The notes: generated from the sequence alone by a model not told the origin. DNA of 58,796 nt from an uncultured Candidatus Saccharibacteria bacterium (GCA_964436165.1 CAYTBY010000004.1:1-58796); one strand, 5' to 3'. Positions 336-51,980 are shown, counted from the first letter of the stretch. Numbers and translations are program-made.

Positions 336-1445
336 CTGAAGCAAGAGATGATCAGCAAAAAGGAAGGCTTAAGAGAAAAGCTCTGGCCCTTTCCGGAGTT
401 ATCAAGAACAGAGCTGGAATCCCAATACAATAACCAGATCGAGATTCTTGAGAGAACCGGTCTCTTAACTCATCTGGCTAACGGAGAACTGGGGATTAAA
501 CTAAATAACCCTTCGAATTCCTCAGGGCAAGCCATAGAATACCCTCTGCCTAGCTTTCAGGAAATAACCCGAAGAATACGACCCTCCTTCGCTGAAGCTT
601 CGGAGGGCAAGGAAAAAAGAGAAATCTTAAGAACCAAGATCAGCCAGGGCTTCAATCAGCTCCAGATTACCCCCTTAGTCTCAATTGAGACCCTTAAACA
701 AACCCTCGGCCGTCTTCTAGTAGAACATCATCATAACCATAAACTGTTTAAAACTAAGAGGAATCCTACTGTGCCCTCCGAAGCCTTTGGCGTAGGACGG
801 GAAGACAAAGATGAACTCCTGGATCTAGACCTTAATAACCCGGTCTATCTCTATGACCGGTTCCAAGATAACCCTTTATTAAGATATTACCCCAAGGCCT
901 TTGACCCCGATAATCATCAAGGGATAACCAAAGACCAGCTGATTGCCGAAACTAAGGGTTTTAACGTTATTCTCCAGGAAAAGAACCAATTCCTGCCTCA
1001 AGAGAACGAGAATCAGATCGTCCCTTCGAGTCCCTCAGGGCAAGCTAACCAAGGCAAGCCCAATCAGAGAAAAAGAATAGAAAACAACAAAACCCCCATA
1101 GAATACCTTAACCTTCAGAATCCCGCCTCCGTCCAAGACTTCGGCGAGGCAAAGCAATATCAGCACGAATCCTATCTGACCATTGAAGACTGGCTGATTC
1201 AGTTTATCACCCATCTTGAGCAAACCAACCAAGTATCCAATGACTTGGACGACAATAACGCCGTCTGGCTGCCAGGGAACTATCTGCCTCCTACCCTACA
1301 GGAAAGACGACAAAATACTAGTTCTTCGGGCAGGCTCCCGGACGGCGACTGGCTTCGCGACGATCGCCGGGCCAGGGTTGGTTGGGACGATCCCGGTTTT
1401 CGCTTTCCGGCGTGGGGTGTTCGTGCCGCGGTGAGGGTCTCTTAG
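201..1445 (+). CDS. Probable DGR target protein with C-terminal CLec-type variable region
   Basis: C-terminus GRLPDGDWLRDDRRARVGWDDPGFRFPAWGVRAAVRV resembles DGR variable-protein ends; terminal ~110 nt are adenine-poor. Confidence 0.65.
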   Translation: MPSQECRQFKEDLAGLSSLGEEFDRLLKTAVPSGKEEEVIQRWEELKQEMISKKEGLREKLWPFPELSRTELESQYNNQIEILERTGLLTHLANGELGIKLNNPSNSSGQAIEYPLPSFQEITRRIRPSFAEASEGKEKREILRTKISQGFNQLQITPLVSIETLKQTLGRLLVEHHHNHKLFKTKRNPTVPSEAFGVGREDKDELLDLDLNNPVYLYDRFQDNPLLRYYPKAFDPDNHQGITKDQLIAETKGFNVILQEKNQFLPQENENQIVPSSPSGQANQGKPNQRKRIENNKTPIEYLNLQNPASVQDFGEAKQYQHESYLTIEDWLIQFITHLEQTNQVSNDLDDNNAVWLPGNYLPPTLQERRQNTSSSGRLPDGDWLRDDRRARVGWDDPGFRFPAWGVRAAVRVS

Positions 1446-1553
1446 GCTTAAGACTTTTCTTCTTATCTCTTTTCTTATCCCTTAATCTTATTCCTTTCTT
1501 CGAAATTTTTTATGGAAATCTTTGAAGCCTGGCTTGTCGATCTTTCTATATAA

Positions 1554-1976
1554 CTATTGCCGAGAAATAAAATTCAAAATAATCTTTATATAGTCCCGAT
1601 AAGCTGGGATAAACTCTTTGGCTGATTCGTAGAATTTCTTATAGTCCTCGTCAAAATCATATTCATGGACAAGTATATTGCGCAGTTTGGCACTAATTAT
1701 CAACTGCGAAAGCGTCTTTTCTTCAAAAATCCCCAATTTTGCCAAATTGCTGAATGACGAACGATAAGAGTCTGGGGTTTCGCTAGTCCTTTCTATCAGA
1801 ATAGTCGTATTAACATCGCTCGCTAGTTCTACGATGAGCTGAAAATCTCGTTCCGCCGCTCGAATGGAAATCATATCTGAATAAGTAGCCGAAAACGGCT
1901 TTGACAGTAAGTTTTCAAGTTCATTTAGCAAAGCCGCTATTTGTTCTAATTTTTTATGGATTATTTCAATACCCAT
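1554..1976 (-). CDS. HEPN (DUF86/HepT-like) RNase toxin
   Basis: RNILVHEY = Rx4HxY HEPN motif; directly downstream of an MNT gene. Confidence 0.9.
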   Translation of the reverse strand: MGIEIIHKKLEQIAALLNELENLLSKPFSATYSDMISIRAAERDFQLIVELASDVNTTILIERTSETPDSYRSSFSNLAKLGIFEEKTLSQLIISAKLRNILVHEYDFDEDYKKFYESAKEFIPAYRDYIKIILNFISRQ

Positions 1977-1979
1977 TTT

Positions 1980-2330
1980 TTATTTAATACCGGCATTTAG
2001 AACTTCCGCCCGACGTAGCCTGAATTTAGCCGTATCTTGATAGCGTTTCCAAGCAAGTACCTTAAAGCGAAGGAAATCGTATTCTGTTCCTGATAAAAGC
2101 CGGCCGGTTTGGGCAATAGAATGCTGTAATAGCGGCGAAGCGGTATTTAGGTCTACTAAATCGATCAGATCTGAAGAGATATGCATATCCTTGGCTATTT
2201 GTTCTGATACTTCTTCCTTGTCTTTTATAGAAAGGGGGTGATCAGCCAAAACAGCCACATCAATGTCGGATGTAGGTCTTGTATTTCCCGATATTTGAGA
2301 ACCGAAAAGAATTATCAGATTTGTTTTCAT
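1980..2330 (-). CDS. Minimal nucleotidyltransferase antitoxin (MntA-like)
   Basis: LFGS...SDIDVAV motif, 116 aa. Confidence 0.9.
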   Translation of the reverse strand: MKTNLIILFGSQISGNTRPTSDIDVAVLADHPLSIKDKEEVSEQIAKDMHISSDLIDLVDLNTASPLLQHSIAQTGRLLSGTEYDFLRFKVLAWKRYQDTAKFRLRRAEVLNAGIK

Positions 2331-2384
2331 AGAATAAAAATATCATAATTATGATATAGAAACAATATGGTGTATGTTTTACCA

Positions 2385-2566: not shown

Positions 2567-2603
2567 GATAATAAATTTTATGTTAAAATAATTATAGTTA
2601 TAC

Positions 2604-4316
2604 ATGAACAAGGGGGTCAACAAAGAATTTATTATCTTTTTAGTTATTATGGCCGTGGCCGTATTTTTTCGTTTCTATCAGTTGGATTTAGTTCCGCCGG
2701 GCTTATGGCCCGATGAAGCGGCTAATGGCGTCGACGCCTTAAAAGTGCTGGATGAATGTCGAAATGTCGAAATGTCGAAATGTCTTAGCAAGTTTAAGAT
2801 ATTCTATCCGGCCAATAACGGACGGGAAGGATTGTTTATAAATCTCCAGGCATTTTCTATAGCCATATTCAGAGTTGAACCCTGGGCCTTGCGCCTAGTT
2901 TCAGCGATTATGGGCGTTCTGACCATAGCCGGTCTTTATCTGTTAACTCGGTATATTTTTAACTGGCGAATAGCCGCTGTATCAAGCTTTTTCCTGGCCA
3001 TATCATTCTGGCATGTTAACTTTTCTCGGATCGGCTTCCGGGCAATCATGCTGCCCCTTATTTTAGTTTGGGGATTTTACTTTTTATGGCGTGGCCTGCG
3101 AAACGGCCGTTTGAGGGACTTTTTTATTGCCGGCCTTATCACTGGACTAGGTTTTTATACTTATTTTTCATTCCGGATAGCTCCCTTGATCGGACTTATA
3201 CTTTTCTGGAATTATTGGTCATACATTAAAAAAGATTTTTCTTTTTCCAAATATGAACACACCAGAAACCACCTTCTTCGAGGCTTTGCTCTTTTAGTCC
3301 TGACAACAATAATTATAGCTCTGCCGATGATGGTGTATTTTTACGTCCATCCAGATGACTTTCTAAAACGAGAAGGCCGGCCGATATCGGTATTTGCCCA
3401 GGAAAAACCAATCAAGGAATTAGGAATTAGTATAGTTAGGACATTAGGAATGTTCAATTTTACCGGAGACCAAAACCAGCGCCACAATATTCCCGGTTGG
3501 CCGGAATTGTCTCTGCCGATCGGAATTTTATTTATAGCCGGATTTTTGAAAGAGTTATTCCATTGGCTTTCAAGAAAACACGGCCCTCCTTCGCCCAAAG
3601 GCTTCCTCCTTCGCCAAGGCTTCGGAGGACAAGTCGGAGGACACAGCCACTTTTCAACCGTGCACACTTTTCTTTTCAGCTGGTTCTTGGTAATGCTTCT
3701 GCCAGGTTTCTTATCAATCGAAGCCCCTCATGCTTTGCGGGTTATCGGCGTTGTACCGGTCGTAATGATATTCGCCGCCATCGGCTTCTGGTGGTTCGTT
3801 AATCTTATTTCTCGGCTCTACCGAGTTTACGATCCCCACTACCAATTTGATAAGCAAACATACAATCACGAAGCCAAAATACTTATTTCAATCACGGCTT
3901 TAGTCTTTCTTATTTCACTTGGATTTTTAGAATATTCAAGATATTTTATAAGTTGGGGCCTTAACCCAAAAACTAAAGAGGCATTTACCCAAAAATATAT
4001 TGATATCGCTGAATATTTGAACATGATAGACGTTGAGGTGCCAAAATATATTTTAGTTAATGAGGGCGACGTTTTGGTTGATAAAGTACCTAATAATGCC
4101 CAAACGATTAAATATCTAACCAGCACCCACAACCAACAATGCTCAATTCAAAATCAGATATACTATCTGCCTCCCAACCAGCTTTCAACTTTCAGGTTTC
4201 CAGCCCATTATTTCTTAATACCCCTTGCTACTGACCATGAACTTGAAACAACCTTAATTAACCGGCATTATTTATACAAAACACCCCATGAATCTTTCAC
4301 TATTTTCAGCAAATAA
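2604..4316 (+). CDS. GT-C fold membrane glycosyltransferase (ArnT/PMT, GT39/83-like)
   Basis: PPGLWPDEA luminal DE motif, many TM helices, SFWHVNFSR. Confidence 0.85.
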   Translation: MNKGVNKEFIIFLVIMAVAVFFRFYQLDLVPPGLWPDEAANGVDALKVLDECRNVEMSKCLSKFKIFYPANNGREGLFINLQAFSIAIFRVEPWALRLVSAIMGVLTIAGLYLLTRYIFNWRIAAVSSFFLAISFWHVNFSRIGFRAIMLPLILVWGFYFLWRGLRNGRLRDFFIAGLITGLGFYTYFSFRIAPLIGLILFWNYWSYIKKDFSFSKYEHTRNHLLRGFALLVLTTIIIALPMMVYFYVHPDDFLKREGRPISVFAQEKPIKELGISIVRTLGMFNFTGDQNQRHNIPGWPELSLPIGILFIAGFLKELFHWLSRKHGPPSPKGFLLRQGFGGQVGGHSHFSTVHTFLFSWFLVMLLPGFLSIEAPHALRVIGVVPVVMIFAAIGFWWFVNLISRLYRVYDPHYQFDKQTYNHEAKILISITALVFLISLGFLEYSRYFISWGLNPKTKEAFTQKYIDIAEYLNMIDVEVPKYILVNEGDVLVDKVPNNAQTIKYLTSTHNQQCSIQNQIYYLPPNQLSTFRFPAHYFLIPLATDHELETTLINRHYLYKTPHESFTIFSK

Positions 4317-4321
4317 TTCTC

Positions 4322-6118
4322 ATGAATAAATATTCTCTCGATTTAATAGCCCTAATTATCGTGGCCGTGGCTTTAGTTCTGGCCATAACCAGCGTCTGGA
4401 ATGATACGCCGATAGTTGATGAGATACCCCACATCGGAGCCGGTTATTCTTATGTCGCCAAGCTCGACCATCGTTTGAATCCTGAGCACCCTCCCTTAGC
4501 CAAAGATTTAGCCGGTTTATCCTTAAAAATATACGGCATAAATGACGGCCCGGCTTTTGAAAGCCGTTTTTGGCAAAAAGATATAAACGGTCAATGGGAA
4601 TTCGGCCGAAAACTAATATTTAACTCCGGCAATGACCCGATGAGAGTGAGCCGGTTTGCCAAAATGCCGATGTTAATTTTCTTCATAATCTCGGCGATTA
4701 TAGTTTTTGCCTGGGCCAGACAAATATCCGGCTATTTTGCCGCCTCAATGGCTCTGTTCCTATTTGCCCTCTCGCCCACTGTCCTTGCTCATGCAAGATT
4801 TGTAACTACCGATGTCCCGGCGCTTTTCGGAGTGCTTCTATCGTCTTATTTTTTCATCCACTATCTTAAGAATAAGAACAAAAAAAATCTTGCTGCAGCC
4901 GGCATTGCTTTTGGCATCGCCGAACTAACAAAGTTTTCTTTATTTTTATTAGTCCCGTTTTTTTTGGCCCTTTCTATTATTTATGCTCTTTTGAATTTTA
5001 AAGAAAAAAAGATACTACATACTACATACTACATACTACATACTATTCTTATCATTGTCATCGGCTACGTTTTTGTCGTCTGGCCGGTTTATGTCCTCCA
5101 CACCTGGAATTATCCGCCTGAGCTTCAGCACCAGCATACAGAAAATATGCTAAGCACTTATGGCACACGTTCAATCGCTGAAACAGTTATTTATCTATCC
5201 GATAAGCCGATCATTCGGGGTTTGGCTGAATATGGCCTGGGGCTTTTGATGGTTACCCAGCGCTCTGTCGGCGGTAATACCACTTACTTTATGGGTGAAA
5301 TTCGCAACTGGGCCTGGCCCCAATATTTTCCCATTGTTTACTTCATCAAAGAACCTCTCTCATTTTGGCTTTTGTTAACAATCGCATTTTTATACTTTGG
5401 AGCCAAAATTAAAATTACAAATTACAAATTACAAATTACAAAAATTCGAGATTGGTCTCGCAATAACTTCGAAAAATTATTCATGTTAGCCTGGATCCTT
5501 CTTTACTGGTTTGTCAGCATCAGATCAAATCTAAATATCGGCGTCCGCCACCTGATGCCCGTCTATGGATTTACGTTTATACTTTTAGCCGGTGTACTAG
5601 TTAAAATAACTACTTTAATCAATTCGAAAAAGATCCTTACTACTTACTACTTACTACTTACTACTCTCTTCGGATGGTACTTATATGAAAACTTATCCGT
5701 TTACCCCTACTATCTAACCTATTTTAACCAAGTTGCTGGCGGACCTTCGGGAGGTTACAGGTATGTCGTTGACTCTAATTTGGATTGGGGGCAGGACCTG
5801 AAACGTTTAACCGATTGGGTTGAAAATCCGCCAGCTGGCGGAAATATTAATAAAATAAGCTTGGACTATTTCGGCTGGTCAGATCAGACATATTTCTTGA
5901 AAGAAAAGCTTGTTTGGATATCATCTGGAAAATATAAAAATGCCAATGAGTTTCTTCTGGATAATCCGGACGGCGGATATATCGCCGTCTCAGCCAGTTT
6001 CTACATGGGTTCATTTGAAAAACCAGAAACATCTTATGCTTGGCTTGAAAACTATAAACCCGTAACCGTCATCGGGAACAGTATTTTTGTCTGGTATATA
6101 TCTCCACTTCTTCGCTAA
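4322..6118 (+). CDS. GT-C fold membrane glycosyltransferase (PMT-like)
   Basis: DEIPH, NPEHPPLAK, DSNLDWGQD motifs; polytopic. Confidence 0.85.
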   Translation: MNKYSLDLIALIIVAVALVLAITSVWNDTPIVDEIPHIGAGYSYVAKLDHRLNPEHPPLAKDLAGLSLKIYGINDGPAFESRFWQKDINGQWEFGRKLIFNSGNDPMRVSRFAKMPMLIFFIISAIIVFAWARQISGYFAASMALFLFALSPTVLAHARFVTTDVPALFGVLLSSYFFIHYLKNKNKKNLAAAGIAFGIAELTKFSLFLLVPFFLALSIIYALLNFKEKKILHTTYYILHTILIIVIGYVFVVWPVYVLHTWNYPPELQHQHTENMLSTYGTRSIAETVIYLSDKPIIRGLAEYGLGLLMVTQRSVGGNTTYFMGEIRNWAWPQYFPIVYFIKEPLSFWLLLTIAFLYFGAKIKITNYKLQITKIRDWSRNNFEKLFMLAWILLYWFVSIRSNLNIGVRHLMPVYGFTFILLAGVLVKITTLINSKKILTTYYLLLTTLFGWYLYENLSVYPYYLTYFNQVAGGPSGGYRYVVDSNLDWGQDLKRLTDWVENPPAGGNINKISLDYFGWSDQTYFLKEKLVWISSGKYKNANEFLLDNPDGGYIAVSASFYMGSFEKPETSYAWLENYKPVTVIGNSIFVWYISPLLR

Positions 6119-6139
6119 AAGCTTCGAAGTGCACAGCTC

Positions 6140-6690
6140 TAAAATAAAACGACCCTCGGATCCACCGCAACTTATGTGCGTAGAAACCGAGGGTAGCAAA
6201 CTGGCTTTAATTTCAAAGACTCGTGCCAGCAAATACAGTCAAGGCTCTGCCATCTGCCTTGAGGATCGGGGTTGTCCCCGATTAGGTGGCCAGCGACAAC
6301 ACCCATCAAGGTCAGGGAGCGACCGAGTTCATCCCGATCCGTTACTCCCCATAACAGCTGTCGCGGCCATTTCGACGCAAGAACTGCCGACCAACTATGA
6401 GTCCCTGACCCACAGCTCTAATTAGGTCTTTGATCCGCGCAGTTCCTGCAATTTGATTAGCCCAAACCCTTCAACTTAGCTCAGGGTAAAGAGCTCGAAG
6501 AAGCCAATAAACAAGAAACTTACTTTTACGTAGAGATCCCGAAGACATGTTTATAGTCTTTATTTACAATCTTTTAAGGCCTAGTTTATCTTACTTGAAT
6601 GCCTAGATTTGTAGAGTTTTATTGGCTTTTCCGAGCCCTCTGGCCAGCTGAACTGGCCTAAAGACTCGTTTTGATAAGGTACTTATTATT
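6140..6690 (-). ncRNA. Candidate large structured non-coding RNA (~550 nt)
   Basis: Consensus promoter at 6697-6725, no minus-strand ORF, many helices, terminal hairpin 6152-6194 followed by a U-rich tract. Confidence 0.55.
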
Positions 6691-6696
6691 ACTTCC

Positions 6697-6772: not shown

Positions 6773-7591
6773 TTATCTGAGTTTCAGATTTATCACCAGA
6801 TCCCCTGGCGGTTGGCCTTCTTTCCCGGTATTGCCGCCTTTTGGAATAACAACCGAATAATTGTTTTCAAGATATTCAGGAATTCTTATTTCCAGTTTCC
6901 TTTTCGTTTTTACTCTGCCCGAACCAGAGCAAATACGACATTCTTTTTCCGGCAGTTTTCTTTTGCCGTGGCATTTCGGACAAATTCCGATTCTCGTAAA
7001 GACGCCGAAGGCGCTCTTGGTTGTCTGCCTAACCTGGCCGGCTCCGCCGCAGGTTCCGCAATTGATCAGCTTGTATCCCTTTTCCACGCCACCGCCATCA
7101 CATGATTCGCACTTATCCAGAACCGAATATTCAAAAATTTTTGTAGTTCCCAGATCCTTTTTACCAATATGAGCTTCTAGGTAAATATCCTCACCTTTAG
7201 CTGGCTCTTCCTGATATGCCGGCCGAGCGTAGCCTCCGCCGCCCATCATATCGGAAAAGGCCTCAAAAATATCTTCGAATCCTCCCCCGCTTCGTCCTCC
7301 CCGAAATCCGCCGAATATATCAGAAAAATCAAAATCTTGTCCTCCATAGGCGGATCCGCCTCCGGCGGAAAAAGCACCATCGTTATAGGCAGAACCAAAA
7401 TTGTCATAGCTCGAACGCTTTCTGGGGTCAGATAAAACCTGATAGGCCTCGTTAACCTCTTTGAATTTCGCCTCATTCCCGCCCTGCTTGTCGGGATGAT
7501 ATTGATGGGCCATCTTGCGGTAAGCCTTCTTAACCTCCTCTTCGGACGCGGTTCTTGGTATGCCTAATATTTGATAATAGTCGTGTGGCAT
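6773..7591 (-). CDS. dnaJ: DnaJ chaperone, short form
   Basis: J domain with HPD, G/F region, four CxxCxGxG-type repeats; ends early at [10 protein letters not shown]. Confidence 0.9.
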
Positions 7592-8496: not shown

Positions 8497-8530
8497 TATT
8501 TGGAATATTTCCCGCTTCCGCCTTATTAAT

Positions 8531-9190: not shown

Positions 9191-11083
9191 TTATTTTTTC
9201 TCTTCTTCTTTGGCTTCTTCGGCTTTTTGCGGTTCCTCTTTCGGTTTCTCGGCTTGCTGGGCTTGATAGAGCGACGTTCCGACCCTTTGGGCGACTTTTG
9301 AAAGTTCTTCTACGGCTTTCTTAATTTCCTCTATATTATCATTTTTTAACTCTTCCTTCAATTTTTCAACCTTAACTTTTAGTTCTTCCCTATCTCTTTC
9401 TTTTATTTTACCTGCCCCGGCCGAAGCGTCGGGGCCATCATTTTCTTTGACCATCTTTTCAGTTGTGTATATCATTGTCTCGGCCAAATTCTTAGTTTCA
9501 GCCAGCTCTTTGCGCTTGGCGTCTTCAGCCGCGTGTTTCTCGGCATCAGCGGTCATCCTTTTCTTCTCTTCATCTGTAAGACCCGATGAACCCTCAATTC
9601 TTACCGACTGCTCCTTGCCGGTGCCCTTATCTTTAGCTTTAACATTCAATATCCCGTTAGCATCAATATCAAATGAGACTTCTACTTGCGGAATACCTCG
9701 AGGAGCCGGCGGAATACCGTCGAGAATAAATCTTCCGAGGGTTTTGTTATCGTGGGCCATCGCCCTTTCTCCCTGCAAGACATGAATCTCAACCGAGGGC
9801 TGGTTATCAGCCGCGGTTGAAAATATCTGGCTCTTTGAAACAGGAACAGTGGTGTTCTTCTCTATCATTTTGGTAAATACCTGGCCCAGCGTCTCAATAC
9901 CAAGCGATAAGGGCGTAACATCGAGCAACAACACATCCCGAACCTGGCCCTGCATGATACCTCCCTGAATGGCCGCTCCGACCGCAACTACTTCATCGGG
10001 ATTTATATCTTTATGAGGTTCTTTGTCGAATAATTTCTTAACTTCTTCCATTATCAACGGCATCCTCGTCTGTCCGCCGACCATCACCACTTCGTTTATA
10101 TCCGACATTTTATATCCCGCCTCTTCGACGGTTTTCCTGGTCAATTCTATCGAACGGTCAACCAGATCTTTGACCAAACTTTCCAGTTTAGCCCTGGTAA
10201 GGGCCATATTAAAGTGCTTTGCTCCACCAGAATCAGCCGTTAAGAACGGGATATTTATTTCCGTTTGCATTGTGCTTGATAACTCGTGCTTAGCTTTTTC
10301 AGCCGCATCTTTCAAGCGCTGTATAGCCAGCTGGTCTTTTGAAACATCCACACCCTGCTCTTTTTTAAATTCATCAACTAAATAAGCTATCAGTTTTTGG
10401 TCTATATCGTCTCCGCCCAGATGAGTATCTCCGCCTGTGCCTTTTACTTCGATTGTGTCATCTCCTATTTCAAGCACCGAAATATCAAAAGTTCCTCCGC
10501 CAAAGTCATAGACAACGATCTTCTCATCTTTTTTCTTATTTAAACCGTAAGCCAAAGCGGCCGCCGTAGGCTCATTGATAACCCTTTTGACGGTTAGCCC
10601 GGCAATTTCTCCGGCATCTTTAGTCGCTTTCCTTTGAGAATCATCAAAATATGCCGGAACGGTAATTATGGCTTCAGTGATCTTTTCGCCTAACTTGTCT
10701 TCCGCGTCCTGTTTTAATTTCTGCAAAACCATTGCTGAAATTTCTGCTGGTTTATGATATTTCTCACCCATTTTAACCTCAACATCACCATGAGCGCCCT
10801 CCTTAATCTCGTAAGGTAAGAGTTTTTTATCTCTCTGAACTTCGGTATCTGAAAAACGCCGGCCGATAAGCCGTTTGACCGAATAAATGGTATTAGCCGG
10901 ATTGGTAACGGCCTGTCTCTTGGCCGTTACGCCAACGTATCTTTCGCCGTTCTTGCCAACAGCAACAACCGAAGGCGTAGTCCGCATTCCTTCTTTATTT
11001 TCCAGTATCCTCGGCTGGCCTATCTCGACCACGGCCATGGCACTGTTAGTAGTACCGAGGTCTATACCTAAAATCTTTGACAT
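9191..11083 (-). CDS. dnaK: Chaperone DnaK (Hsp70)
   Basis: [30 protein letters not shown]. Confidence 0.99.
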
Positions 11084-16771: not shown

Positions 16772-18247
16772 TTAAGGGCTGACCTTAAACTCGATCGGAT
16801 TATCAGGATACGACCAATACCATGTAGAGTAATCGGCATTGTGTCCTATGCCCATAATTGAAAATGTGTAAGTTTTTGATGGGTCAAGAGGTGGACCATC
16901 ATAGATCTTAGAATTAATGCCTGGAGTAATGTTGGCGTAAAAAGACCAGGCAGGCTTATATGAAGAAGCTGGCTTATCAAAAAGAACAATTCCGTAACAG
17001 CATGGGGTCGGCCAATTAGCATCAACCACCCACTCGAACTTCAGATTAGAGACTGGGGATTGAGATGCGGCGGGAGACAGAATTTTCACCGGGAAATACC
17101 TCAATGTCTGCACGTTGGAAGAGATGATTTCCTGACCGCTGGAATCATAGGCTATAACATAATATTTATACTCACCAGGAGAATATGTAGAAGGAGGAAA
17201 ATCAGATGTTCCATACAACGTTGTGGTAGAGCCTGGTTTTACTCTAGTAATAGTCCATCTAGTACAATCATCTACAAATTGCGTGGCTATCCATTCGTTT
17301 GTCACTCGGATACTATTGCAGAGGTTTGAATCTATATTTTGAAAATCTGCGGCTAATGAATAACCACTGTCATTTGGAAACTTTTTATATAATTTCAAAG
17401 AGTTTGCTTTGGGATTATTTTTAGAATAACTAAGCTTTAATATCGTATTGATCATATTAACGCGCGTAGTTTCATAAAAATTATAAAAACCATCCTCAAG
17501 AATCATTGCGGTGCCGGGAGGTGGAACCGGAGTTGAGGTAACACAAGAGCCCATAGTATCTCCATGATTTAAATGTGCCGGTACAAGCGATGGGTCGGCA
17601 ACATTTATTTCATGCCAATTTTCAGGATTATCCGAGGCATGGTGGCAAATCTTAGTTAAAGACTGCCCCCATCTCTTAGCCCTGTCATAAACCTGTGTAT
17701 CTTTTGCCGAAGTTACCGCCGTTCCTTTCTGATACCAATTAAATTCTTTAGAATTTATACAGAAAACTTTTTTGAAGAAATCCGGGTCTTGGTTGACGGC
17801 CTGATCACCAGAAACATTAACCCATTGAAGCTGGGCGGTGCTTTGGCCGGTTAGTTTTATGGCATAGATTTTAGGGTCACTTGCTTGCCCTGAGCTTGCC
17901 TGCCCTGAACTTGTTGAAGTGGTCGAATGGGTTTCGCAATTTCTGTAATAACTTGATGTTGGAAAAGCGTCTCGAGCTTGGACAGAAACCTTTTTCACAT
18001 TCTTAAACCCGCCCAAATGACCGTAGTAATCAAAGATAGCGGGATTTAAGAATAATCTCTTGTACCCATGTTCATTAACAATGAAAACATCCGGATCACC
18101 AGAGCTAGAAGCGCTTATTAAGCTACCTTCTTTCAATCCAAAATCAGAGGGCCTGCCCTGAGGCAGCTCGAAGGGTTGGGCGGCGTGGGAATTATCAGCC
18201 ACCAGGAATAATGACAAAAGTGACAAAAAGAAGAGTTTTTTGATCAT
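16772..18247 (-). CDS. Secreted hypothetical protein
   Basis: Signal peptide MIKKLFFLSLLSLFLVADNSHA; 491 aa. Confidence 0.85.
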   Translation of the reverse strand: MIKKLFFLSLLSLFLVADNSHAAQPFELPQGRPSDFGLKEGSLISASSSGDPDVFIVNEHGYKRLFLNPAIFDYYGHLGGFKNVKKVSVQARDAFPTSSYYRNCETHSTTSTSSGQASSGQASDPKIYAIKLTGQSTAQLQWVNVSGDQAVNQDPDFFKKVFCINSKEFNWYQKGTAVTSAKDTQVYDRAKRWGQSLTKICHHASDNPENWHEINVADPSLVPAHLNHGDTMGSCVTSTPVPPPGTAMILEDGFYNFYETTRVNMINTILKLSYSKNNPKANSLKLYKKFPNDSGYSLAADFQNIDSNLCNSIRVTNEWIATQFVDDCTRWTITRVKPGSTTTLYGTSDFPPSTYSPGEYKYYVIAYDSSGQEIISSNVQTLRYFPVKILSPAASQSPVSNLKFEWVVDANWPTPCCYGIVLFDKPASSYKPAWSFYANITPGINSKIYDGPPLDPSKTYTFSIMGIGHNADYSTWYWSYPDNPIEFKVSP

Positions 18248-35910: not shown

Positions 35911-36324
35911 ATGTCCGACGAAGAATTAAAACAATATATTGAAAAATCCCCTTCGAATTCCTCAGGGCAAGACCGCCAGGCCGGAAAAACCGACCCGCGC
36001 TACGCCGAAGGCTCCGGCGAGGCGAGCGACCAGATCCGGCAGGAGCTTTCGAACGTGATGAGGGATAGAAAAATACTAGTCAAAATAGTCAAGATTTTAA
36101 CTATAACTATTATAACCTTTGGTATCGGCTTTTTCTTATTAGTAATGACGACGAGGGGTGTAGTTATTTTTAAAACGAGTGCGGGTGGGACGAGCGTATT
36201 TAGGGTGTACAAATTAAAAATTGGTAAAATATCTGATAATGTATTTTGTTTAGGATATAAAACTAGTAACGCTACTTGTCTTGGTATTGGTATAGAAATG
36301 AGAAGCGAGGGTTGGGATACCTAA
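35911..36324 (+). CDS. Small membrane-anchored protein, copy 1
   Basis: TATAAT 6 nt upstream of ATG; one TM; paralogous to 37837. Confidence 0.8.
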   Translation: MSDEELKQYIEKSPSNSSGQDRQAGKTDPRYAEGSGEASDQIRQELSNVMRDRKILVKIVKILTITIITFGIGFFLLVMTTRGVVIFKTSAGGTSVFRVYKLKIGKISDNVFCLGYKTSNATCLGIGIEMRSEGWDT

Positions 36325-38113: not shown

Positions 38114-39583
38114 ATGCTCCTCTATAACACCCTAACCAAAGCTAAGGAAAAACTGATTCACCGTAATGACCACGTAAAATCGCCTAACGGCGATCACGAG
38201 GCAAGTAAGAAAATCCGGATGTTCGTCTGTGGGCCGACAGTTTATGATTATATTCACATCGGCAATGCCAGGACTTTTGTATTTTTTGATGTAGTTGCCA
38301 AATATTTAAAATATCAAGGCTACGAAGTCGATTATATCCAGAATATAACTGACATAGACGACAAGATAATAAAGCGGGCTCAAGAAGCCGAACGCGAGCC
38401 TCTTGATTGGGCAAAAGAATACACTGACAAATTCCTAGAAGACATGAAAGGGTTAGGGGTTGATTCGCCTAAGTACGCTCCCGCGACAGAGTATATTGAG
38501 CAAGTCGTGAAACAGATCAAAACATTAATAGATAAGGGCCGTGCTTATTTAATTGAGGGGGATGGTTGGTATTTTGACCTATCTACTTTCAAGGACTATG
38601 GGAAACTATCCGGCCGAACAACCCTTATGGCTGATGACGCTATAAGTCGTATAGATGAAAATGATAAAAAAAGGAACAAAGGCGATTTTGCTTTGTGGAA
38701 AATTTCGAAAGAAGGAGAGCCAGCTTGGGACTTTGAGACAGCAAAATATATTGGAATAATTGGGGCCGGCCCCGCCTTCGCTAAAGCTACGGCGGGCAGG
38801 CCGGGTTGGCACATCGAGGACACGGCTATTACCGAACATTTCTTCGGCCCGCAATATGATCTACACGGCGGAGGACAGGACCTATTGTTCCCCCATCATG
38901 AAGCCGAGATAACCCAGCAAGAATCGGCTTCCGGTAAAAAACCATTCGTCAAATACTGGATGCACGTCGCTTTCTTGGTCAACAAAGAACAAAAAATGTC
39001 CAAGTCTCTCGGTAATTTTGAAACGGTCAATGAACTATTAAAAAAATACCCGAAAGAAGTTTTGCGATTTTACTTATTGAGTGGATATTACCGTTCGCCT
39101 CTTGATTACAGCGACGACATGCTCAAGCAATCCCAAGCTGCCGTATCTCGAATATCAGAATTCATCCAAAAGCTTCACTTGGAAGCTAAGCTTCCAGGTG
39201 AAGTTAAGCTTCCAGGTGAAGTAATTAAATCAGCTAAAGAGAAATTTCTTGAAGCAATGGACAACGACTTTAATACTCCCGAAGCATTTGCGACCATATT
39301 TGATATGATAAGAGCAATTAATCCTTTCCTGGCCGAAAATAAGGTTAGTAAAAAACAAGCCGAAGAAATTTTGGGGTTATTAAAGGCAATTAATGACATA
39401 ATGGGTATCATCCCAACAGAACAACAAAAAATTCCCGCCGAAGTGCAGGAATTAATAGAAAAACGTGAAAAATTCCGCCACGAAAAAAACTATGAGGCAT
39501 CAGACGAAATAAGAACCCAAATACGAGATTTGGGCTATAATGTTGAGGATACAACATATGGGCCTCTGCCGATTAAGAACTAG
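38114..39583 (+). CDS. cysS: Cysteine--tRNA ligase
   Basis: CGPTVY, HIGN, DFALWK, RPGWHIE, KMSKS. Confidence 0.97.
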   Translation: MLLYNTLTKAKEKLIHRNDHVKSPNGDHEASKKIRMFVCGPTVYDYIHIGNARTFVFFDVVAKYLKYQGYEVDYIQNITDIDDKIIKRAQEAEREPLDWAKEYTDKFLEDMKGLGVDSPKYAPATEYIEQVVKQIKTLIDKGRAYLIEGDGWYFDLSTFKDYGKLSGRTTLMADDAISRIDENDKKRNKGDFALWKISKEGEPAWDFETAKYIGIIGAGPAFAKATAGRPGWHIEDTAITEHFFGPQYDLHGGGQDLLFPHHEAEITQQESASGKKPFVKYWMHVAFLVNKEQKMSKSLGNFETVNELLKKYPKEVLRFYLLSGYYRSPLDYSDDMLKQSQAAVSRISEFIQKLHLEAKLPGEVKLPGEVIKSAKEKFLEAMDNDFNTPEAFATIFDMIRAINPFLAENKVSKKQAEEILGLLKAINDIMGIIPTEQQKIPAEVQELIEKREKFRHEKNYEASDEIRTQIRDLGYNVEDTTYGPLPIKN

Positions 39584-45414: not shown

Positions 45415-46893
45415 ATGAATCGTCAAATCAATGTAAATCGGCTATATTTTTTAGGCATTGGCGGCATCGCCATGGCCAATTTGGCCTGCCTGCTTAAAAA
45501 ACGTGGCTATTCAATTTCCGGATCAGACCTGGATACTTTCGGTCCCTCGGCTGTTCTTCTTAAAAAACATGGGATTAAATACTTCAAAGACCACAGCCCA
45601 AATCATATTAAAAAATTCAAGCCCGACATCGTGGTAATAGGCAATGCTATCCAGAGGGGTAATCCAGGATTAGAATACGTTCTTAATCGTCGAATCCCCT
45701 ATCAATCAATGCCTGAAATTATAAAGACCACGCTCCTTAATAAAAAACGGCCAATTGTTATAACCGGCACCAGCGGAAAAACCACAACCACCGCTCTTGT
45801 TACCTGGATACTCCATCATTCCGACTTCAAGCCAACGGCTTTAGTCGGCGGTATAATGAACAACTTTGGTTCAGGATTTTTAAACGGAACCGGCCCCTAT
45901 ATCGTTATTGAAGGCGATGAATATAATTCTTCTTTCTATGACTCGTCTCCTAAATTTATTCACTACTCTCCGTATATTGGCGTTGTAAATAATATCCAGC
46001 CAGATCATCTTGATATCTACGGTTCTCTCGATGAACTAATGAAGGCCTTCCAAAAATTACCCCGCCTTATACCGGAAAAAGGACTCCTGGTCCTTAATGC
46101 TAAAGATAAAAATTCATTATCGCTTAAAAACGTTTCTCATTCAAGGGTAGAGACATTCGGACAAGGCGGTTCGGTCGCGGCCAAAAATATCCGTTACCAC
46201 GAAAATGGTATATCTTTTGATTTAATCATAGGTTCCAGAAGCAAGGCTTCTGGAAATACTGATAATACCTATACTTCCAGAAGCCTTGCTTCTGGAAGTA
46301 TAGGGACCGTGACAAGCCGGCTTTTGGGGAAACATAATGTAGAAAATATTCTCGCTGCTTCTGCCGTGGCTTTGAATATTGGTATCTCTTTTAAAAAATT
46401 AGCCAAAGCAATAGAAACATTCAAAGGAGTCAAAAGACGGCTAGAAATAATCTATAAAAAGCAAGGCGTTACCATAATTGACGATTTCGCTCATAACCCA
46501 GACAAAGTTTTGGCTTCTCTTTCTGCTCTGCGGGACCATTTCCAAAAACATAAAATTATCGCCATATTTGAACCCCGCACTGCTTCATCAAGAAGAAAAT
46601 TTTTCCAAGATGCCTACCCCGCCTCTTTCAAACCAGCCGATATAGTCTACATCGCCGAACCATACAAAAAACATGCCCTGAACAAAAAAGAGGTTTTCTC
46701 AAGTAAAAAACTAGTATCAGATTTAAATAAAAAAGGCACCGAGGCCTATTCCCTAAAAACCGTTGACGCCATACTCGCCCATGTTAAACATCGGATGTTT
46801 AACAAACCGGCAAATCAATCGGTTATTATTATCGTCATGACCAGCGGCGACTTCGACGGCATTCATCAAAAACTCATTAATTTAGTTTCTTAA
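45415..46893 (+). CDS. mpl: Murein peptide ligase Mpl / MurC-family ligase
   Basis: GIGGIAM, GTSGKTTTT, IEGDEY, DHLDIY, GVKRR, DDFAHNP, FEPRT. Confidence 0.8.
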   Translation: MNRQINVNRLYFLGIGGIAMANLACLLKKRGYSISGSDLDTFGPSAVLLKKHGIKYFKDHSPNHIKKFKPDIVVIGNAIQRGNPGLEYVLNRRIPYQSMPEIIKTTLLNKKRPIVITGTSGKTTTTALVTWILHHSDFKPTALVGGIMNNFGSGFLNGTGPYIVIEGDEYNSSFYDSSPKFIHYSPYIGVVNNIQPDHLDIYGSLDELMKAFQKLPRLIPEKGLLVLNAKDKNSLSLKNVSHSRVETFGQGGSVAAKNIRYHENGISFDLIIGSRSKASGNTDNTYTSRSLASGSIGTVTSRLLGKHNVENILAASAVALNIGISFKKLAKAIETFKGVKRRLEIIYKKQGVTIIDDFAHNPDKVLASLSALRDHFQKHKIIAIFEPRTASSRRKFFQDAYPASFKPADIVYIAEPYKKHALNKKEVFSSKKLVSDLNKKGTEAYSLKTVDAILAHVKHRMFNKPANQSVIIIVMTSGDFDGIHQKLINLVS

Positions 46894-49818: not shown

Positions 49819-49906
49819 AATATTATTGGATGGCAGCTACTCATGCCTGCCCGCCTATGGAGGGCTGACGAGATCACTCTTCGAAATGCACTAGAATATA
49901 GAAAAT

Positions 49907-49937
49907 AAAAAACGGCTGCGAGATGCAGTCGTTTTTT
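49907..49937. terminator. Bidirectional intrinsic terminator
   Basis: aaaaaacggctgc-gagat-gcagtcgtttttt between convergent genes. Confidence 0.75.
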
Positions 49938-51583
49938 TACATTTCAAAATATGATTCGGTTATTCCCTGGCTAATGTCCAAATTTAGCTTGCTTAATACA
50001 CGTTTAATTTTATTTTCGTTTTTCATCTTATTATCTGATCTAATCTCCAAAAAGTTTCCCAGAACCCTCTTCCTGAATTCATCAATAACATAGACGGAAT
50101 CAAGAGAAAAAACTACACCGTCGAGCTGGAATAGTTCCCTGGTTTTCTTGACTGTTTTAATACAATTTCCATAAAGAGCTAAAAATTTATTTTTTACTTC
50201 CTCGGTAATTTCAAATTCGAATTTTGGTCTCTTTCTGAAGGACGATCTTACCTTTGGTCCTTTGTAGGTAAGGATGAAAAGCGCGCCCTCTTCTCTTATC
50301 CTTAAAATCTCTCCGGTATCAACAAGGTTTCTATCTTTCGGATTGTAATAGTAATCTGTCTGAACAACGGCCCCCAACCGGTCAGCGCCTAATTTTCTTA
50401 AACTCTCCGAGTCTATGTCGGCAACAAATTTAATCTGAACTTCATGAAGACCGGACTTTTCAGCTTCTACTTCTGGGTTATATTCATTATTAATTATTAT
50501 GTCAGCATTGTTCTTGGTAGCTTGAACATATTTTTCGTGCATTGGCTCCACTATTTCTGAGAAATACTTTAAAATATCAGACGGTTTCTGGCCGGTTCTC
50601 TCGACATCTCTAAGCAACCTTCTGAGAATTCGGCCATGAAAACCTATATCGACGAAGATTCTGATATCCCCCTCACCGACCAAAGCTTCATTTAAGGCAA
50701 AAAGTCCTTCCAAAATTATAACCTTTGCTGACCTAAATACTTCTGAACCTATCGGCTCCCCGCTTTTAAAACTATAGACCGGTTTATCTATAAACGTTTC
50801 TCTTTTTAGTAATGCGAGGTGTTCTTTTAAAAGCCCGAGGTCTAGGGCTTCGGGCTGATCCCAATTCAAAATTACGCCCCGCTCCTTTTCTCTGTCCATA
50901 TAACTACGGCCACGATAGTAATCGTCCATCGATAATATAGCCGCTTTATCGCCAAACCTACTCTTAATCTTATCGGCCACAGCGCTAGTTTTTCCGGAAG
51001 CCGAACCGCCTGCTACCTGAATAATAACCGACTGCCGACCATTCTTTAAAATTTTATCCACTAAAGCAATGACTCTGGCAATTCCTGATTCCAGGTCAAA
51101 CTTATATTTATTCCCTAATCCGTCAAATCCATGCGTAGCCAAGTTGTTACTCGAATATTTTTTGTCATCGGTTACATCTCGACCGAACCATTCAGGAGGT
51201 ATGAAACTCTTGGCGTTATTTTCCGTTTTAAACTCTACCTCAGCAGTATAAAGATCGTCAAAGTCACGATAGATATCTAATTCTATTATAAATCCATTAT
51301 ATGGAATATAAAAACGGGTCTTCCAGAGACGTCTGCCTATGGTTTTAGGCCACAATGAATAAAATTCTTCTTTCGTTATTTCCATGTCGCCGTCTGGACC
51401 AATATCCCTTACGACGCCATGACCGGATTTCTTAACCTTAAAATATTTGTCGCCCTCGCGTCTTATCCTGGTATCTAATCCATCCTTGTCCTTAAAATAA
51501 CCGGCTACCAGTTCCTTATGCGGATACGAATCTAAATTTTTCGGTATAAGTTTAACTTCCCATTTTCGTTCTATTTCTTGCAT
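49937..51583 (-). CDS. CYTH - uridine kinase-like - CYTH fusion protein
   Basis: EIERKW...EVEF; GGSASGKT...DDYY...EGLF; EVQIKF...QTDYY...LRIR...LEI. Confidence 0.85.
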   Translation of the reverse strand: MQEIERKWEVKLIPKNLDSYPHKELVAGYFKDKDGLDTRIRREGDKYFKVKKSGHGVVRDIGPDGDMEITKEEFYSLWPKTIGRRLWKTRFYIPYNGFIIELDIYRDFDDLYTAEVEFKTENNAKSFIPPEWFGRDVTDDKKYSSNNLATHGFDGLGNKYKFDLESGIARVIALVDKILKNGRQSVIIQVAGGSASGKTSAVADKIKSRFGDKAAILSMDDYYRGRSYMDREKERGVILNWDQPEALDLGLLKEHLALLKRETFIDKPVYSFKSGEPIGSEVFRSAKVIILEGLFALNEALVGEGDIRIFVDIGFHGRILRRLLRDVERTGQKPSDILKYFSEIVEPMHEKYVQATKNNADIIINNEYNPEVEAEKSGLHEVQIKFVADIDSESLRKLGADRLGAVVQTDYYYNPKDRNLVDTGEILRIREEGALFILTYKGPKVRSSFRKRPKFEFEITEEVKNKFLALYGNCIKTVKKTRELFQLDGVVFSLDSVYVIDEFRKRVLGNFLEIRSDNKMKNENKIKRVLSKLNLDISQGITESYFEM

Positions 51584-51659
51584 TGATTTTTCCTTGTTAA
51601 AGTGCATCGGTTTTTATATTTAACCATATTTATATAAAATTACAAACAAAAATCCTGGG

Positions 51660-51980
51660 TTAATCCAGGATTTTTGTTATCTGAACTTTCGTGTAGGGTT
51701 GCCTGTGGCCTTTCTTTTTTCTCCTTCTTGTCTTGTTTTTATAACGAAAGACCATTTTCTTTTTACCCTTTCCTTCTTCAATTACTTTGGCCTCAACCTT
51801 AGCTCCGACCACTAGGGGTTTCCCTACCTTAATATCCTTGGCATTAGCCCAGAGCAAAACCTGATCAAAGATAACCATGCCCTGAGCTTGTCGAAGGGTT
51901 TCATCCAATTTTTCCACGCTTAAAACATCCCCTTCTTGGACTTTGTACTGTTTTCCTCCGGTTTTAATTACGGCAAACAT
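51660..51980 (-). CDS. rplU: 50S ribosomal protein L21
   Basis: MFAVIKTGGKQYKV, GHRQPYT. Confidence 0.98.
   Translation of the reverse strand: MFAVIKTGGKQYKVQEGDVLSVEKLDETLRQAQGMVIFDQVLLWANAKDIKVGKPLVVGAKVEAKVIEEGKGKKKMVFRYKNKTRRRKKKGHRQPYTKVQITKILD

Follow-up and report, generated by a model that had tools for sequence, protein, structure and literature searches.

Families of short GC-rich hairpin elements read in frame within the genes of a Candidatus Saccharibacteria genome

The tiny genome of a groundwater Candidatus Saccharibacteria bacterium (G000; 1,151,101 bases, 41.2% GC) carries five families of short GC-rich hairpins, A to E, which exceed chance frequency genome-wide and most of whose copies lie within open reading frames (ORFs). 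We consider that they are probably non-autonomous elements of the REP or Ssn-related-motif kind. In this explanation, the elements would be copied into single-stranded DNA, and selection would clear those insertions that shift the frame, bring a stop or hit a structured part of the protein. The remaining insertions would be translated as Ser-, Gly-, Ala- and Pro-rich additions of 4–21 residues, and the nicking or copying enzyme would most likely be a hairpin-specific single-strand nuclease of the same genome.

The families were first noticed in a stretch of 58,796 nucleotides, the whole of which is referred to here as the window. Fuzzy patterns for each family were run over G000 with five dinucleotide shuffles as the control, and ORFs were taken from a crude caller (coding fraction 89.4%). 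Matches numbered 35 for family A (0–1 in the shuffles), 64 for B (4–10), 50 for C (7–10) and 52 for D (0–2), and an additional family, E (CCAGAAGC..GCTTCTGG), gave 31 (1–5). The exact family A pattern CCCTTCGA-N4-6-CTCAGGGCAAG was matched five times in the window and never in any of 100 shuffles. Perfect GC-rich hairpins (stem of at least 7, GC at least 0.66) were likewise in excess, with 211 in the genome compared with 43 and 33 in two shuffles. According to the crude caller, 178 of the 232 matches fall wholly within ORFs (A 28/35, B 45/64, C 35/50, D 41/52, E 29/31), 51 are intergenic, and one or more are present in 92 of the 830 ORFs that reach 150 aa. The first-pass annotation had described tiny hairpin families lying in frame within many proteins, essential ones included; these counts, along with the clean indels described below, bear it out. 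The repeats are 15–33 nt in length and all five families share with REPs a short, imperfectly palindromic form and many dispersed copies, far above the shuffles. When assembled independently, the source reads span several elements with no differences (e.g., at 5644–7635), and an Rfam search of the window returned one tRNA and nothing else.

The elements of the window, together with a nuclease gene near its end, are as follows.

509..531, + strand: family A hairpin, read as PSNSSGQA in ORF 201-1445
583..606, + strand: family B hairpin (named earlier as 582), PSFAEASEG in ORF 201-1445
775..799, - strand: family B hairpin in opposite orientation (earlier 771), PSEAFGVGR in ORF 201-1445
1022..1044, + strand: family A hairpin, PSSPSGQA in ORF 201-1445
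1122: degenerate or sister-subfamily site, earlier family B
3585..3647, + strand: two family B units as a 63-nt insertion in PMT_2 glycosyltransferase gene 2604-4316; missing in G001, G002 and G004
5827..5842, palindromic: family D TCCGCCAGCTGGCGGA, NPPAGG in PMT gene 4322-6118, net insertion 12 nt
6467..6490, + strand: family A member, intergenic
7343..7366, - strand: family D, 24-nt insertion (earlier 7340), AGGGSAYG in DnaJ; four congeners lack it
9413..9436, - strand: family C, 24-nt insertion (earlier 9411), GPDASAGA in the DnaK lid loop
17884..17932, - strand: degenerate family A pair in ORF 16772-18247, seemingly nested as judged by reading the sequence
18152..18175, - strand: family A copy outside the earlier list, PFELPQGR in ORF 16772-18247
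21893..21923, - strand: GC-rich hairpin of a B-like subfamily (degenerate or sister) in ORF 20619-22094
22059..22082, - strand: family A member, PFDTTQGK in ORF 20619-22094
26020..26051, - strand: family C, 30-nt insertion in a CopA-type P-type ATPase; missing in G001 and G002
29564..29593, - strand: family B, 30-nt insertion (earlier 29559), EKPSFAEASE in ORF 28967-30328; G001 carries a different element at this site
35949..36043, + strand: 5' end of a small ORF, where B-like hairpins follow a family A copy
36651-36745: second copy of that block, from a 702-nt tandem duplication
38772..38795, + strand: family B member, PAFAKATAG in CysRS directly before RPGWHIE, inside an extra segment of ~16 aa
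46240..46296, + strand: family E inverted doublet of 57 nt, REPIN-like, SKASG...SLASG in the Mur ligase middle domain
46786..46800, palindromic: AAACATCGGATGTTT, which also flanks the RAYT gene of contig C18; located in the Mur ligase gene without a clear indel
47748: degenerate family A site among the first 16 residues of DnaB
51876..51898, - strand: family A member, TLRQAQGM in ribosomal protein L21, net gain of 4 aa
58125..58388, + strand: small UPF0213-like GIY-YIG nuclease gene, framed by a perfect inverted repeat of 20 nt (58101-58120 / 58378-58397)
58411..58444, + strand: two adjoining hairpins lying 23 nt downstream of the GIY-YIG gene: CCAGCCAGAGGCTGG and family D TCCGCCCATGGCGGA

The sites named in the first-pass annotation thus fared unevenly. 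Family A membership holds at 509, 1022, 6467, 22059, 35949, 36651 and 51876, with 17884 and 47748 degenerate. In family B, it holds at 582, 771, 3584, 29559 and 38771, the sites at 1122, ~21895 and 35994 being degenerate or of a sister subfamily. Both family C sites (9411, 26020) are members, and the three family D sites (5827, 7340, 58411) all have TCCGCC..GGCGGA hairpins. The sites at 16613 and 23331 were rejected as family A; both lie within a shared conserved intergenic block of ~95 nt.

Eight small GIY-YIG nuclease genes (PF01541 matches) were found in G000, and the solved structures nearest to their products are UPF0213 proteins. Ssn systems are defined by small GIY-YIG proteins with a single domain that belong to the Ssn clade (CDD cd10448) and that cut single-stranded DNA site-specifically beside the hairpin. 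A family A–E match lies within 100 nt of four of the eight genes, compared with 75 of 1328 ORFs, and on contig C13 only, the same family occurs on both sides of the gene. Seven of 30 small GIY-YIG genes sampled from other genomes had a match within 150 nt; strict patterns for A and B, inspected by eye, gave only two adjacent cases among ~105 such genes of relatives. Two family C-adjacent proteins form a well-supported clade, as do two that are family D-adjacent, each pair coming from two genera, and a Pseudomonadota genome has a 92-aa GIY-YIG gene with family A arrays on both flanks. Across 31 genomes, element load correlated with GIY-YIG matches at rho 0.65, with RAYT matches at 0.42 and with genome size at 0.43, the genomes being kin and genome size a confounder. 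Searched with the published SRM pattern, G000 gave one match and five shuffles gave 1, 0, 1, 2 and 3. GIY-YIG genes appear to adjoin the GC-rich hairpins above chance and to track their load, and we put them forward as candidate mobilisers, as a lead and not as a result; for families A–D, the eight UPF0213/Ssn-like nucleases would be the best candidate.

The genome also holds five RAYT-like genes (PF01797 matches), which score best with the NCBIfam model for the REP-associated tyrosine transposase, at 38.9 and 42.7 bits, under its 80-bit cut-off. A palindrome of its own flanks each gene (AAACATCSGATGTTT, GGAAGTTSAACTTCC, CAAGGGCSGCCCTTG, ATAGTGGTCNNACCACTAT and TATCCACACTGTGGATA); these palindromes are dispersed through the genome, some as doublets. 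Families A–E flank none of the five loci. In relatives, at least 13 of 20 RAYT loci have a palindrome of their own, and no A–E stem was present among the perfect hairpins listed at these 20 loci. The REP hallmark of a RAYT gene flanked by the same repeat is therefore seen with these other palindromes and not with A–E, and the five Y1 transposases would be the enzyme of the perfect, AT-richer palindromes.

It could nevertheless be argued that all of the families, the GC-rich A–D included, are ordinary REPs or REPINs on which RAYT transposases act in trans. RAYT-like genes are indeed at hand, the inverted doublets of family E resemble REPINs, A or B is present in all 18 RAYT-bearing relatives, and RAYT is lacking from all five genomes that are free of A and B. 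However, each RAYT has a different palindrome, here and in relatives, and among 13 relatives without a RAYT match, 8 still have copies of A or B (as many as 11). One genome, of unknown completeness, has 226 family A copies and no Y1 transposase match. Families A and B also have no GTAG or CGTC end tetranucleotide; their 5' flank is not conserved and their constant 3' tail reads CAAG or CAGG (as CTTG or CCTG in the opposite strand), CGTC being found in some copies of family C only within the hairpin, at the loop-stem junction. We regard this explanation as unlikely. The first-pass annotation had named no mobilising enzyme; candidates are now available in the RAYTs, for their own palindromes, and, for the GC-rich families, in the GIY-YIG nucleases, which are partly tied to the hairpins.

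Comparison with relatives identified clean indels of 12–63 nt in seven genes, all multiples of three in length, as the first-pass annotation had proposed to check. These were of 24 nt in DnaK (present in one of 22 aligned DnaKs, the other 21 being without it) and, against congeners, of 24 nt in DnaJ, 30 nt in CopA, 30 nt in ORF 28967-30328, 57 nt in the Mur ligase (the doublet at 46240..46296), 63 nt in ORF 2604-4316 and 12 nt in ORF 4322-6118. Among the five proteins for which clean indels had been anticipated, they were found in DnaK and CopA; L21 carries the element with a gain of only 4 aa, CysRS has a messy insert of ~16 aa with the element inside, and DnaB has no indel at its element. 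Copies in L21, the Mur ligase (46786) and CysRS (39181) brought little or no net change in length, for which simple insertion does not account. In relatives, the same families occur at other positions of the same proteins (DPSTSSGQ, ASASAEASADK, PPAGG). The DnaK insert (residues 550–557) is predicted to lie in a low-confidence loop (pLDDT <50) between two lid helices (504–547 and 562–578). No target-site duplication, which along with terminal inverted repeats marks MITEs, was found at unambiguous junctions (DnaK, DnaJ and others). An Anaerolineales contig contains an IS200 copy whose end hairpin holds an exact 23-nt insert of family A that is missing from two sister copies; here too there is no duplication, the prefix of 12 and suffix of 13 nt giving the 25 nt of the empty site. 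These alignments show separate lineages gaining copies at separate sites, with no target-site duplication. Of the active mobile micro-element system adding 8–11 aa that had been proposed at the outset, lineage-specific gain at the DNA level is supported, over a broader range of 4–21 aa; as to present activity, no empty-site allele of the window elements was seen among four metagenome runs.

The exact family A 23-mer is present in many phyla, with unrelated flanks, and occurs in two cyanobacterial records. It is conceivable, though quite unlikely in our estimation, that no dedicated enzyme is involved and that the elements spread through mistakes of host replication or repair (template switching when forks stall) or because short pieces of foreign DNA are taken up. 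The lack of target-site duplications fits with this, as do the copies that replace sequence instead of adding to it, the minority (9%, with 3% in controls) that occupy the apex of a hairpin unrelated to them, and the identity of the family A letters in so many phyla with no single enzyme always present. Template switching, however, accounts for new palindromes and not for the import of a fixed 23-nt word, and the A and B load, which varies widely among congeners (from 0 to 37 copies), tracks the counts of nuclease genes.

Genic copies keep the reading frame and contain no stops; both orientations and nearly every frame are represented. Family A uses five of its six anchored frames, the one with an in-frame TGA holding 0 of 26 copies, and family B uses all six. 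Of the 232 matches, 99 are read through in frame, each side having 60 or more open codons, and only seven are restored solely by an out-of-frame deletion. The stems are kept by compensatory changes: in family B (n=18), the outer pair is T-A in 8, G-C in 8 and unpaired in 2, and the inner pair C-G in 8, T-A in 7 and other in 3. Such pairing was reached in 5 and 0 of 5000 shuffles, respectively, counts that do not amount to a probability because the copies are related. The use of several frames, the avoidance of the stop frame and the stem covariation therefore identify these as DNA elements and not peptide motifs, and from the frame and stop statistics, we infer that they are translated. The varied frames and orientations, the preserved ORFs and the covarying stems had all been noted in the first-pass annotation and are confirmed here.

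Removal of the hairpins from the transcript in the manner of an intron, leaving proteins unchanged, had also been suggested and is very improbable: stable hairpins with covarying stems would be expected of RNA elements too, but the in-frame copies, the empty stop frame and the indels in multiples of three speak against it because a spliced element would be free of such constraints, and Rfam yields only the tRNA in the window. Selection at the peptide level for Ser/Gly/Ala/Pro-rich linkers is similarly far-fetched, for while the commonest readings (SSGQA, PPAGG, SFAEASEG) are linker-like and family D strongly prefers the PPAGG reading in long ORFs, a single DNA word serves in five or six frames and on both strands, 51 matches are intergenic and the exact 23-mer recurs amid unrelated flanks.

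As non-autonomous elements, the hairpins have counterparts, intragenic repeats being known from a few other bacteria and in-frame REPs having already been published. RPE-1, which Ogata and colleagues reportedly described in 2000, is said to be several times longer than the present elements and confined to Rickettsia. It is likewise selfish palindromic DNA lying in frame within the protein genes of a small-genome bacterium, and by its description is set apart from the much shorter elements here. The small dispersed repeats (SDR) of cyanobacteria, attributed to Elhai and colleagues in 2008, are reportedly 21–27 nt hairpins with copies nested in one another and with no known mobiliser; by this description, they are alike in size class, hairpin form and nesting.

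The long Rickettsia palindromic elements, given as the analogue in the first-pass annotation, are not the closest. Nearer are the short GTAG/CGTC-tagged REPs, including RPE-4 and RPE-6 of Rickettsia, which are described in frame within uvrA, uvrB, dnaE and tRNA synthetase genes, adding ~10–30 residues as loops or linkers that the authors view as probably neutral (Di Nocera et al., 2013; PMC3733652). Those too are short palindromic repeats, single or dimeric, inside known genes; they are mostly intergenic, however, whereas 178 of 232 matches here are in ORFs, A and B lack the GTAG/CGTC head, and the present elements are shorter (15–33 nt) and belong to a member of the Patescibacteria. REPIN-RAYT systems or REPtrons (Bertels and Rainey, 2011; PMC3116915) are matched by the RAYT-like genes with their flanking, dispersed and sometimes doubled palindromes, and differ in that the GC-rich families are distinct from those palindromes, five RAYTs share one small genome and many copies are intragenic. 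The work on Ssn describes small GIY-YIG single-strand nucleases paired with gene-flanking hairpin repeats, such as the Neisseria NTS, only 2% of which lie within genes (Chenal et al., 2025; PMC11893778). Shared with these are the small single-domain GIY-YIG genes adjoining dispersed hairpin repeats of 20–50 nt, the different hairpins of different paralogues and a non-palindromic tail that gives orientation. Unlike them, the present repeats miss the published SRM pattern and most copies are in genes, and the proteins match UPF0213 structures.

What is new, then, is a genome in which five RAYT genes are each flanked by a palindrome of their own, distinct from the GC-rich families, and a family A whose exact 23-mer extends across many phyla, including 226 copies in a genome without a Y1 match. 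New also are the small GIY-YIG genes that appear to adjoin the GC-rich hairpins above chance and to track their load, an arrangement that resembles Ssn/SRM.

The genome to which the window belongs (as contig C4) comprises 1,151,101 bases in 58 contigs at 41.2% GC; the genomes of its relatives measure 0.4–1.0 Mb. Family A of its short hairpin repeats is a 23-nt hairpin, CCCTTCGA-N4-5-CTCAGGGCAAG, the strict pattern of which gave five matches in the window and none in any of 100 shuffles. In a genome-wide census using fuzzy family patterns, with counts from five dinucleotide shuffles in brackets, 35 copies of A (0–1), 64 of B (4–10), 50 of C (7–10) and 52 of D (0–2) were found, together with 31 (1–5) of an additional family E, CCAGAAGC-N-GCTTCTGG, often present as inverted doublets. 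All five families exceed the shuffled counts, in agreement with the hairpin families A–D of the first-pass annotation. Perfect GC-rich hairpins (stem at least 7, GC at least 0.66) numbered 211 in the genome, two shuffles giving 43 and 33, and at Rfam gathering thresholds nothing in the window was matched except one tRNA. About 20 of the 24 sites originally listed were borne out, with a few misassigned: 16613 and 23331, given as family A, belong to a separate conserved intergenic block of ~95 nt; 47748 in DnaB, given as an inserted element, is a degenerate match within the first 16 residues and has no indel; and 1122, 21895 and 35994 are degenerate or of a sister subfamily rather than plain family B copies.

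ORFs were called by a crude longest-ORF method, which gave 1328 of them and 89.4% coding DNA; on this basis, 178 of the 232 A–E hits were placed wholly within ORFs, three across an ORF end and 51 in intergenic DNA. Given the coding fraction, hit density is ~2.4-fold lower in coding DNA, though most copies are genic. At least one hit is carried by 92 of the 830 ORFs of 150 aa or more, and the claim that essential proteins are among the carriers stands, a tRNA synthetase and a ribosomal protein being represented besides chaperones and cell-wall ligases. Element-carrying ORFs confirmed by Pfam include CopA (E1-E2 ATPase, HMA), CysRS, a Mur ligase and two glycosyltransferases of PMT type. One 414-aa ORF of the window (201–1445) has at least four and probably five elements within its first 320 residues; it matched no Pfam family and, by tblastn, nothing in the regions syntenic to the window in four congeners, and repeats may make up a large share of it.

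Other repeats were also noted in the window. The ~95-nt block (16596–16700 and 23318–23420) lies downstream of two minus-strand genes and includes TGGATATAAT together with a half site resembling family A; it had no Rfam match at gathering level and may represent either a small RNA or some 3' element. A 702-nt tandem duplication at 35640–37090 contains a 137-aa ORF (35911–36324 and 36613–37026), and the perfect palindrome GTTATGATATATCATAAC is present eight times in and around it (22 copies genome-wide, 18 of them outside ORFs). These copies, adjoined by a 153-aa minus-strand ORF (35178–35639), resemble operator sites of a small regulator.

For comparison with relatives, syntenic regions from four congeners were used and 23 orthologue groups were aligned. 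In DnaK of the window, a 24-nt block sits between unchanged codons and is missing at the DNA level from six congeners, as well as from all 21 other aligned DnaKs (one locus was missed by the filter). Further clean blocks were found as follows.

Clean blocks in genes of the window relative to congeners
DnaJ: 24 nt
CopA: 30 nt
ORF 28967–30328: 30 nt
Mur ligase: 57 nt, a family E doublet
ORF 2604–4316: 63 nt
ORF 4322–6118: 12 nt

The clean indels expected by the first-pass annotation were therefore found in DnaK and CopA; DnaB has none, and in L21 the element amounts to a net gain of 4 aa and is not a simple insertion. Almost no length change accompanies the RAYT-type palindrome at 46786 in the Mur ligase (RAYT being the REP-associated Y1 tyrosine transposase) or the doublet at 39181 in CysRS. 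The same families occupy other positions in relatives: DnaK of G006 has DPSTSSG and KASASAEASA, DnaJ of G001 has the family peptide PRYAGGFGEAS, and L21 of G013 has PPAGG in the exact loop where L21 of the window has TLRQAQGM. By reading of the alignments, elements account for roughly half of those indels of 4 aa or more that are specific to the window. No target-site duplication was visible at the insertion junctions examined. These lineage-specific blocks, with the same families at other sites in relatives, support the earlier reading of the elements as mobile DNA adding loops to proteins.

Four groundwater DNA runs mapped on window positions 1–20000 gave no joint skipping an element; many foreign contigs share the elements at 3600–3640 and 7340–7372, and contig breaks fall at 585 and 3608. 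In an independent assembly of the source reads, contigs start within the family B copies at these same two positions, and read depth is up to 20-fold higher in bins containing elements, which indicates that the repeats break short-read assemblies of the whole community.

The elements behave as DNA rather than as peptide motifs. When anchored on CTCAGGG in ORFs of at least 100 aa, family A uses five of the six frames (14, 7, 1, 3 and 1 copies), none of the 26 copies being in the sixth, where TGA would be in frame; family B uses all six. The different frames and both orientations noted initially were thus confirmed, as was co-variation of the stems, with compensatory pair types in B (outer pair T-A in 8, G-C in 8 and unpaired in 2 of 18; inner pair C-G in 8 and T-A in 7 of 18) and in C (outer pair C-G in 20, T-A in 8 and G-C in 3 of 39). 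Families A and B have a common non-palindromic 3' tail, CAAG or CAGG. Within genes, 22 copies of A lie on the gene strand and 4 on the opposite one, a bias that could be an effect of selection or of strand-specific insertion. Insertion into hairpin loops was rejected as a general rule and is a minor feature of family A, with a perfect stem of 5 bp or more flanking only 9% of 88 cross-phylum copies against 3% of controls, and no copies of B or C.

The alternative that elements are removed at the RNA level was not supported. A search of RNA runs for the DnaK stretch gave no match. Under frame-blind excision, out-of-frame copies would be expected to outnumber in-frame ones about two to one; read-through with at least 60 open codons on each side was observed for 99 of the 232 hits, and an ORF restored solely by an out-of-frame deletion around the hit for 7 (24 such deletions were tried per hit). 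On these frame and ORF statistics, the element copies appear to be translated. Seven candidate split genes that removal of an element would heal were set aside; the one in the window (6106–6130) is a hairpin at a natural stop, since the proteins of relatives end there too. In an AlphaFold model of DnaK (from 21 sequences, two truncated loci of 23 being omitted; mean pLDDT 69.8), the insert (residues 550–557) is predicted to lie in a segment of pLDDT <50 between helices 504–547 and 562–578.

As for the enzymes that might move the elements, co-occurrence with RAYT or GIY-YIG genes had been suggested. Five Y1_Tnp (PF01797) matches were found in the genome, all over the cut-off, and the sole NCBIfam match for these proteins was REP-associated tyrosine transposase, under its cut-off. 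Each RAYT gene is bordered by a private palindrome, dispersed at low copy number and partly intragenic, and at least 13 of 20 RAYT loci of relatives have two or more private-palindrome copies at the gene borders. None of the flanking palindromes in this genome or at those 20 loci belongs to A–E. Some RAYT-like ORFs hold their own palindrome in frame (C5 17127–17801, C2 45019–45807, C18 12949–13620), one example being GGAAGTTGAACTTCC, read as EVELP. Among 31 relatives, 18 have a RAYT match, and all of these hold A or B copies; of the 13 others, five have no A or B copy and eight have 1–11. Families A–E are apparently independent of RAYT.

Small GIY-YIG nucleases emerged from a genome screen for genes having family hits close to each end, which returned one such gene flanked by two family D palindromes. 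The nine PF01541 matches in the genome are UvrC and eight proteins of 76–98 aa, and an A–E hit lies no more than 100 nt away from 4 of the 8 small genes, compared with 75 of the 1328 ORFs (Fisher p ~7e-4).

Small GIY-YIG genes and adjoining hairpins
Contigs C43 and C15: one gene each, adjoining family B
Contig C32: gene adjoining a family C doublet
Contig C13: gene with family D on both sides
Window, 58125–58388: gene adjoining D-like hairpins

Across 31 genomes, summed strict A+B+D counts correlated with GIY-YIG matches (Spearman 0.65; 0.61 without the present genome; 0.52 per Mb); the correlations with RAYT (0.42) and with genome size (0.43) were weaker. As the genomes are kin, the p-values overstate the association. 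Of the two suggested co-occurrences, that with GIY-YIG genes was the stronger in these counts, and that with RAYT genes, which other palindromes flank, the weaker. Twenty further regions were sampled (GIY-YIG matches: 13 of 15 in G016, 4 of 9 in G006, 3 of 5 in G027, and 1 in G031, a 1.8-Mb Pseudomonadota genome), and only 7 of 30 small GIY-YIG ORFs from these and other loci sampled outside the present genome have an A–E hit within 150 nt. In a tree of 38 proteins without UvrC, clades were formed by the two C-adjacent proteins (one from this genome, one from G016; support 100/98) and the two D-adjacent proteins (100/100), the two B-linked proteins of this genome were sisters (90/81), and all five A-adjacent proteins fell within one half, with support for the split of only 56/56. 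Clustering of hairpin labels was equally low in 8 of 200 shuffles, and orthologous loci may share a hairpin by descent alone. In G031 a 92-aa GIY-YIG gene has nested family A arrays on both sides (six core hits in 0.85 kb). From this sequence evidence, small GIY-YIG nucleases are candidate mobilisers of the hairpins, and we regard them as a lead.

The window protein matches the UPF0213 structures 1ywl and 1zg2. A perfect inverted repeat of 20 nt (58101–58397), absent elsewhere in the genome, exactly encloses its gene, which is adjoined by a tRNA gene (58551–58622); a second bracketed GIY-YIG gene lies on contig C1 (4245–4547). Both look like gene cassettes in the loop of a long hairpin, an arrangement rejected as a rule, with 20-nt arms at only 2 of the 8 genes.

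Family A is not confined to one lineage. In a species-representative genome collection, at least 119 stretches contain its exact 23-mer, the carriers by title, among the matches listed, including Alphaproteobacteria (the isolates Sphingopyxis granuli, Citromicrobium bathyomarinum and Chakrabartia godavariana), Acidobacteriota, Chloroflexota, Planctomycetota, Bacteroidota, Cyanobacteria, Deinococcota, Elusimicrobia and many candidate phyla. In a comparison of 88 copies, the flanks had just one base per side in common. In five such genomes the core pattern was found 226, 35, 24, 36 and 74 times (reversed control 0), and family B in none. The 226-copy genome, G031 (completeness not established), gave no Y1 match; many of its family A cores are nested in one another. 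Viruses were rejected as carriers, with the 23-mer in 11 stretches of a viral collection. On an Anaerolineales contig (L227, 1–1460), one of three tandem IS200-like tnpA copies has an exact 23-nt family A insert in one end hairpin, missing from the other two copies, and a second insert in its other end hairpin, neither with a duplication. This is a natural filled/empty pair in non-coding DNA.

Hairpin repeats within genes are of a known kind. Intragenic REPs have been described in Opitutus terrae, Rickettsia conorii (RPE-4, RPE-6), Thauera and others, over half of them dimers coding 20–30 residues, in uvrA, uvrB, dnaE and tRNA synthetase genes (Di Nocera et al., 2013; PMC3733652). Ssn, small single-domain GIY-YIG proteins, are described as cutting single-stranded DNA beside NTS/SRM hairpin repeats, which flank the Ssn genes and number hundreds of copies, with Rickettsia, Wolbachia and Sphingomonas among SRM-rich genomes (Chenal et al., 2025; PMC11893778). 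NTS are reported there to be intragenic in 2% of cases, in contrast to the predominantly intragenic hits found here. The published SRM pattern gave one match in the present genome against 0–3 in shuffles, so the repeats are not SRMs by that definition; the small GIY-YIG proteins, in view of the UPF0213 match, may be a sister family of Ssn. No paper was found by searching with family A DNA words, and none on such repeats in Patescibacteria or candidate-phyla bacteria among titles and abstracts. What is unusual here is that the repeats are mostly intragenic, very short, include one pan-bacterial family and are apparently RAYT-independent.

A broader reading, which we consider rather unlikely, is that family A, a pan-bacterial 23-nt hairpin letter-identical across many phyla, would together with B–D serve as DNA partner to a branch, as yet uncharacterised, of small GIY-YIG (UPF0213/YhbQ-like) single-strand nucleases, one paralogue per family and sister to Ssn/SRM, and that in ultra-small Patescibacteria these hairpins would be colonising coding sequence, continuously writing new surface loops into roughly one protein in nine.

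The identity of family A in Sphingomonadales, Acidobacteriota, Chloroflexota, Cyanobacteria and Patescibacteria, including genomes without a Y1 match, poses a mechanistic puzzle, and the link to small GIY-YIG genes makes the question of the mover testable at the bench. Small GIY-YIG nucleases of this type were recently demonstrated to be programmable single-strand DNA cutters, so new nuclease–hairpin pairs would have value as tools too. In this genome, repeats known as "extragenic" are mainly genic (178 of 232 hits; 92 of 830 longer ORFs), from chaperones to cell-wall ligases, and such intragenic repeats have implications for annotation, for phylogenies of candidate-phyla bacteria built from alignments and for the tolerance of selfish DNA by minimal genomes.
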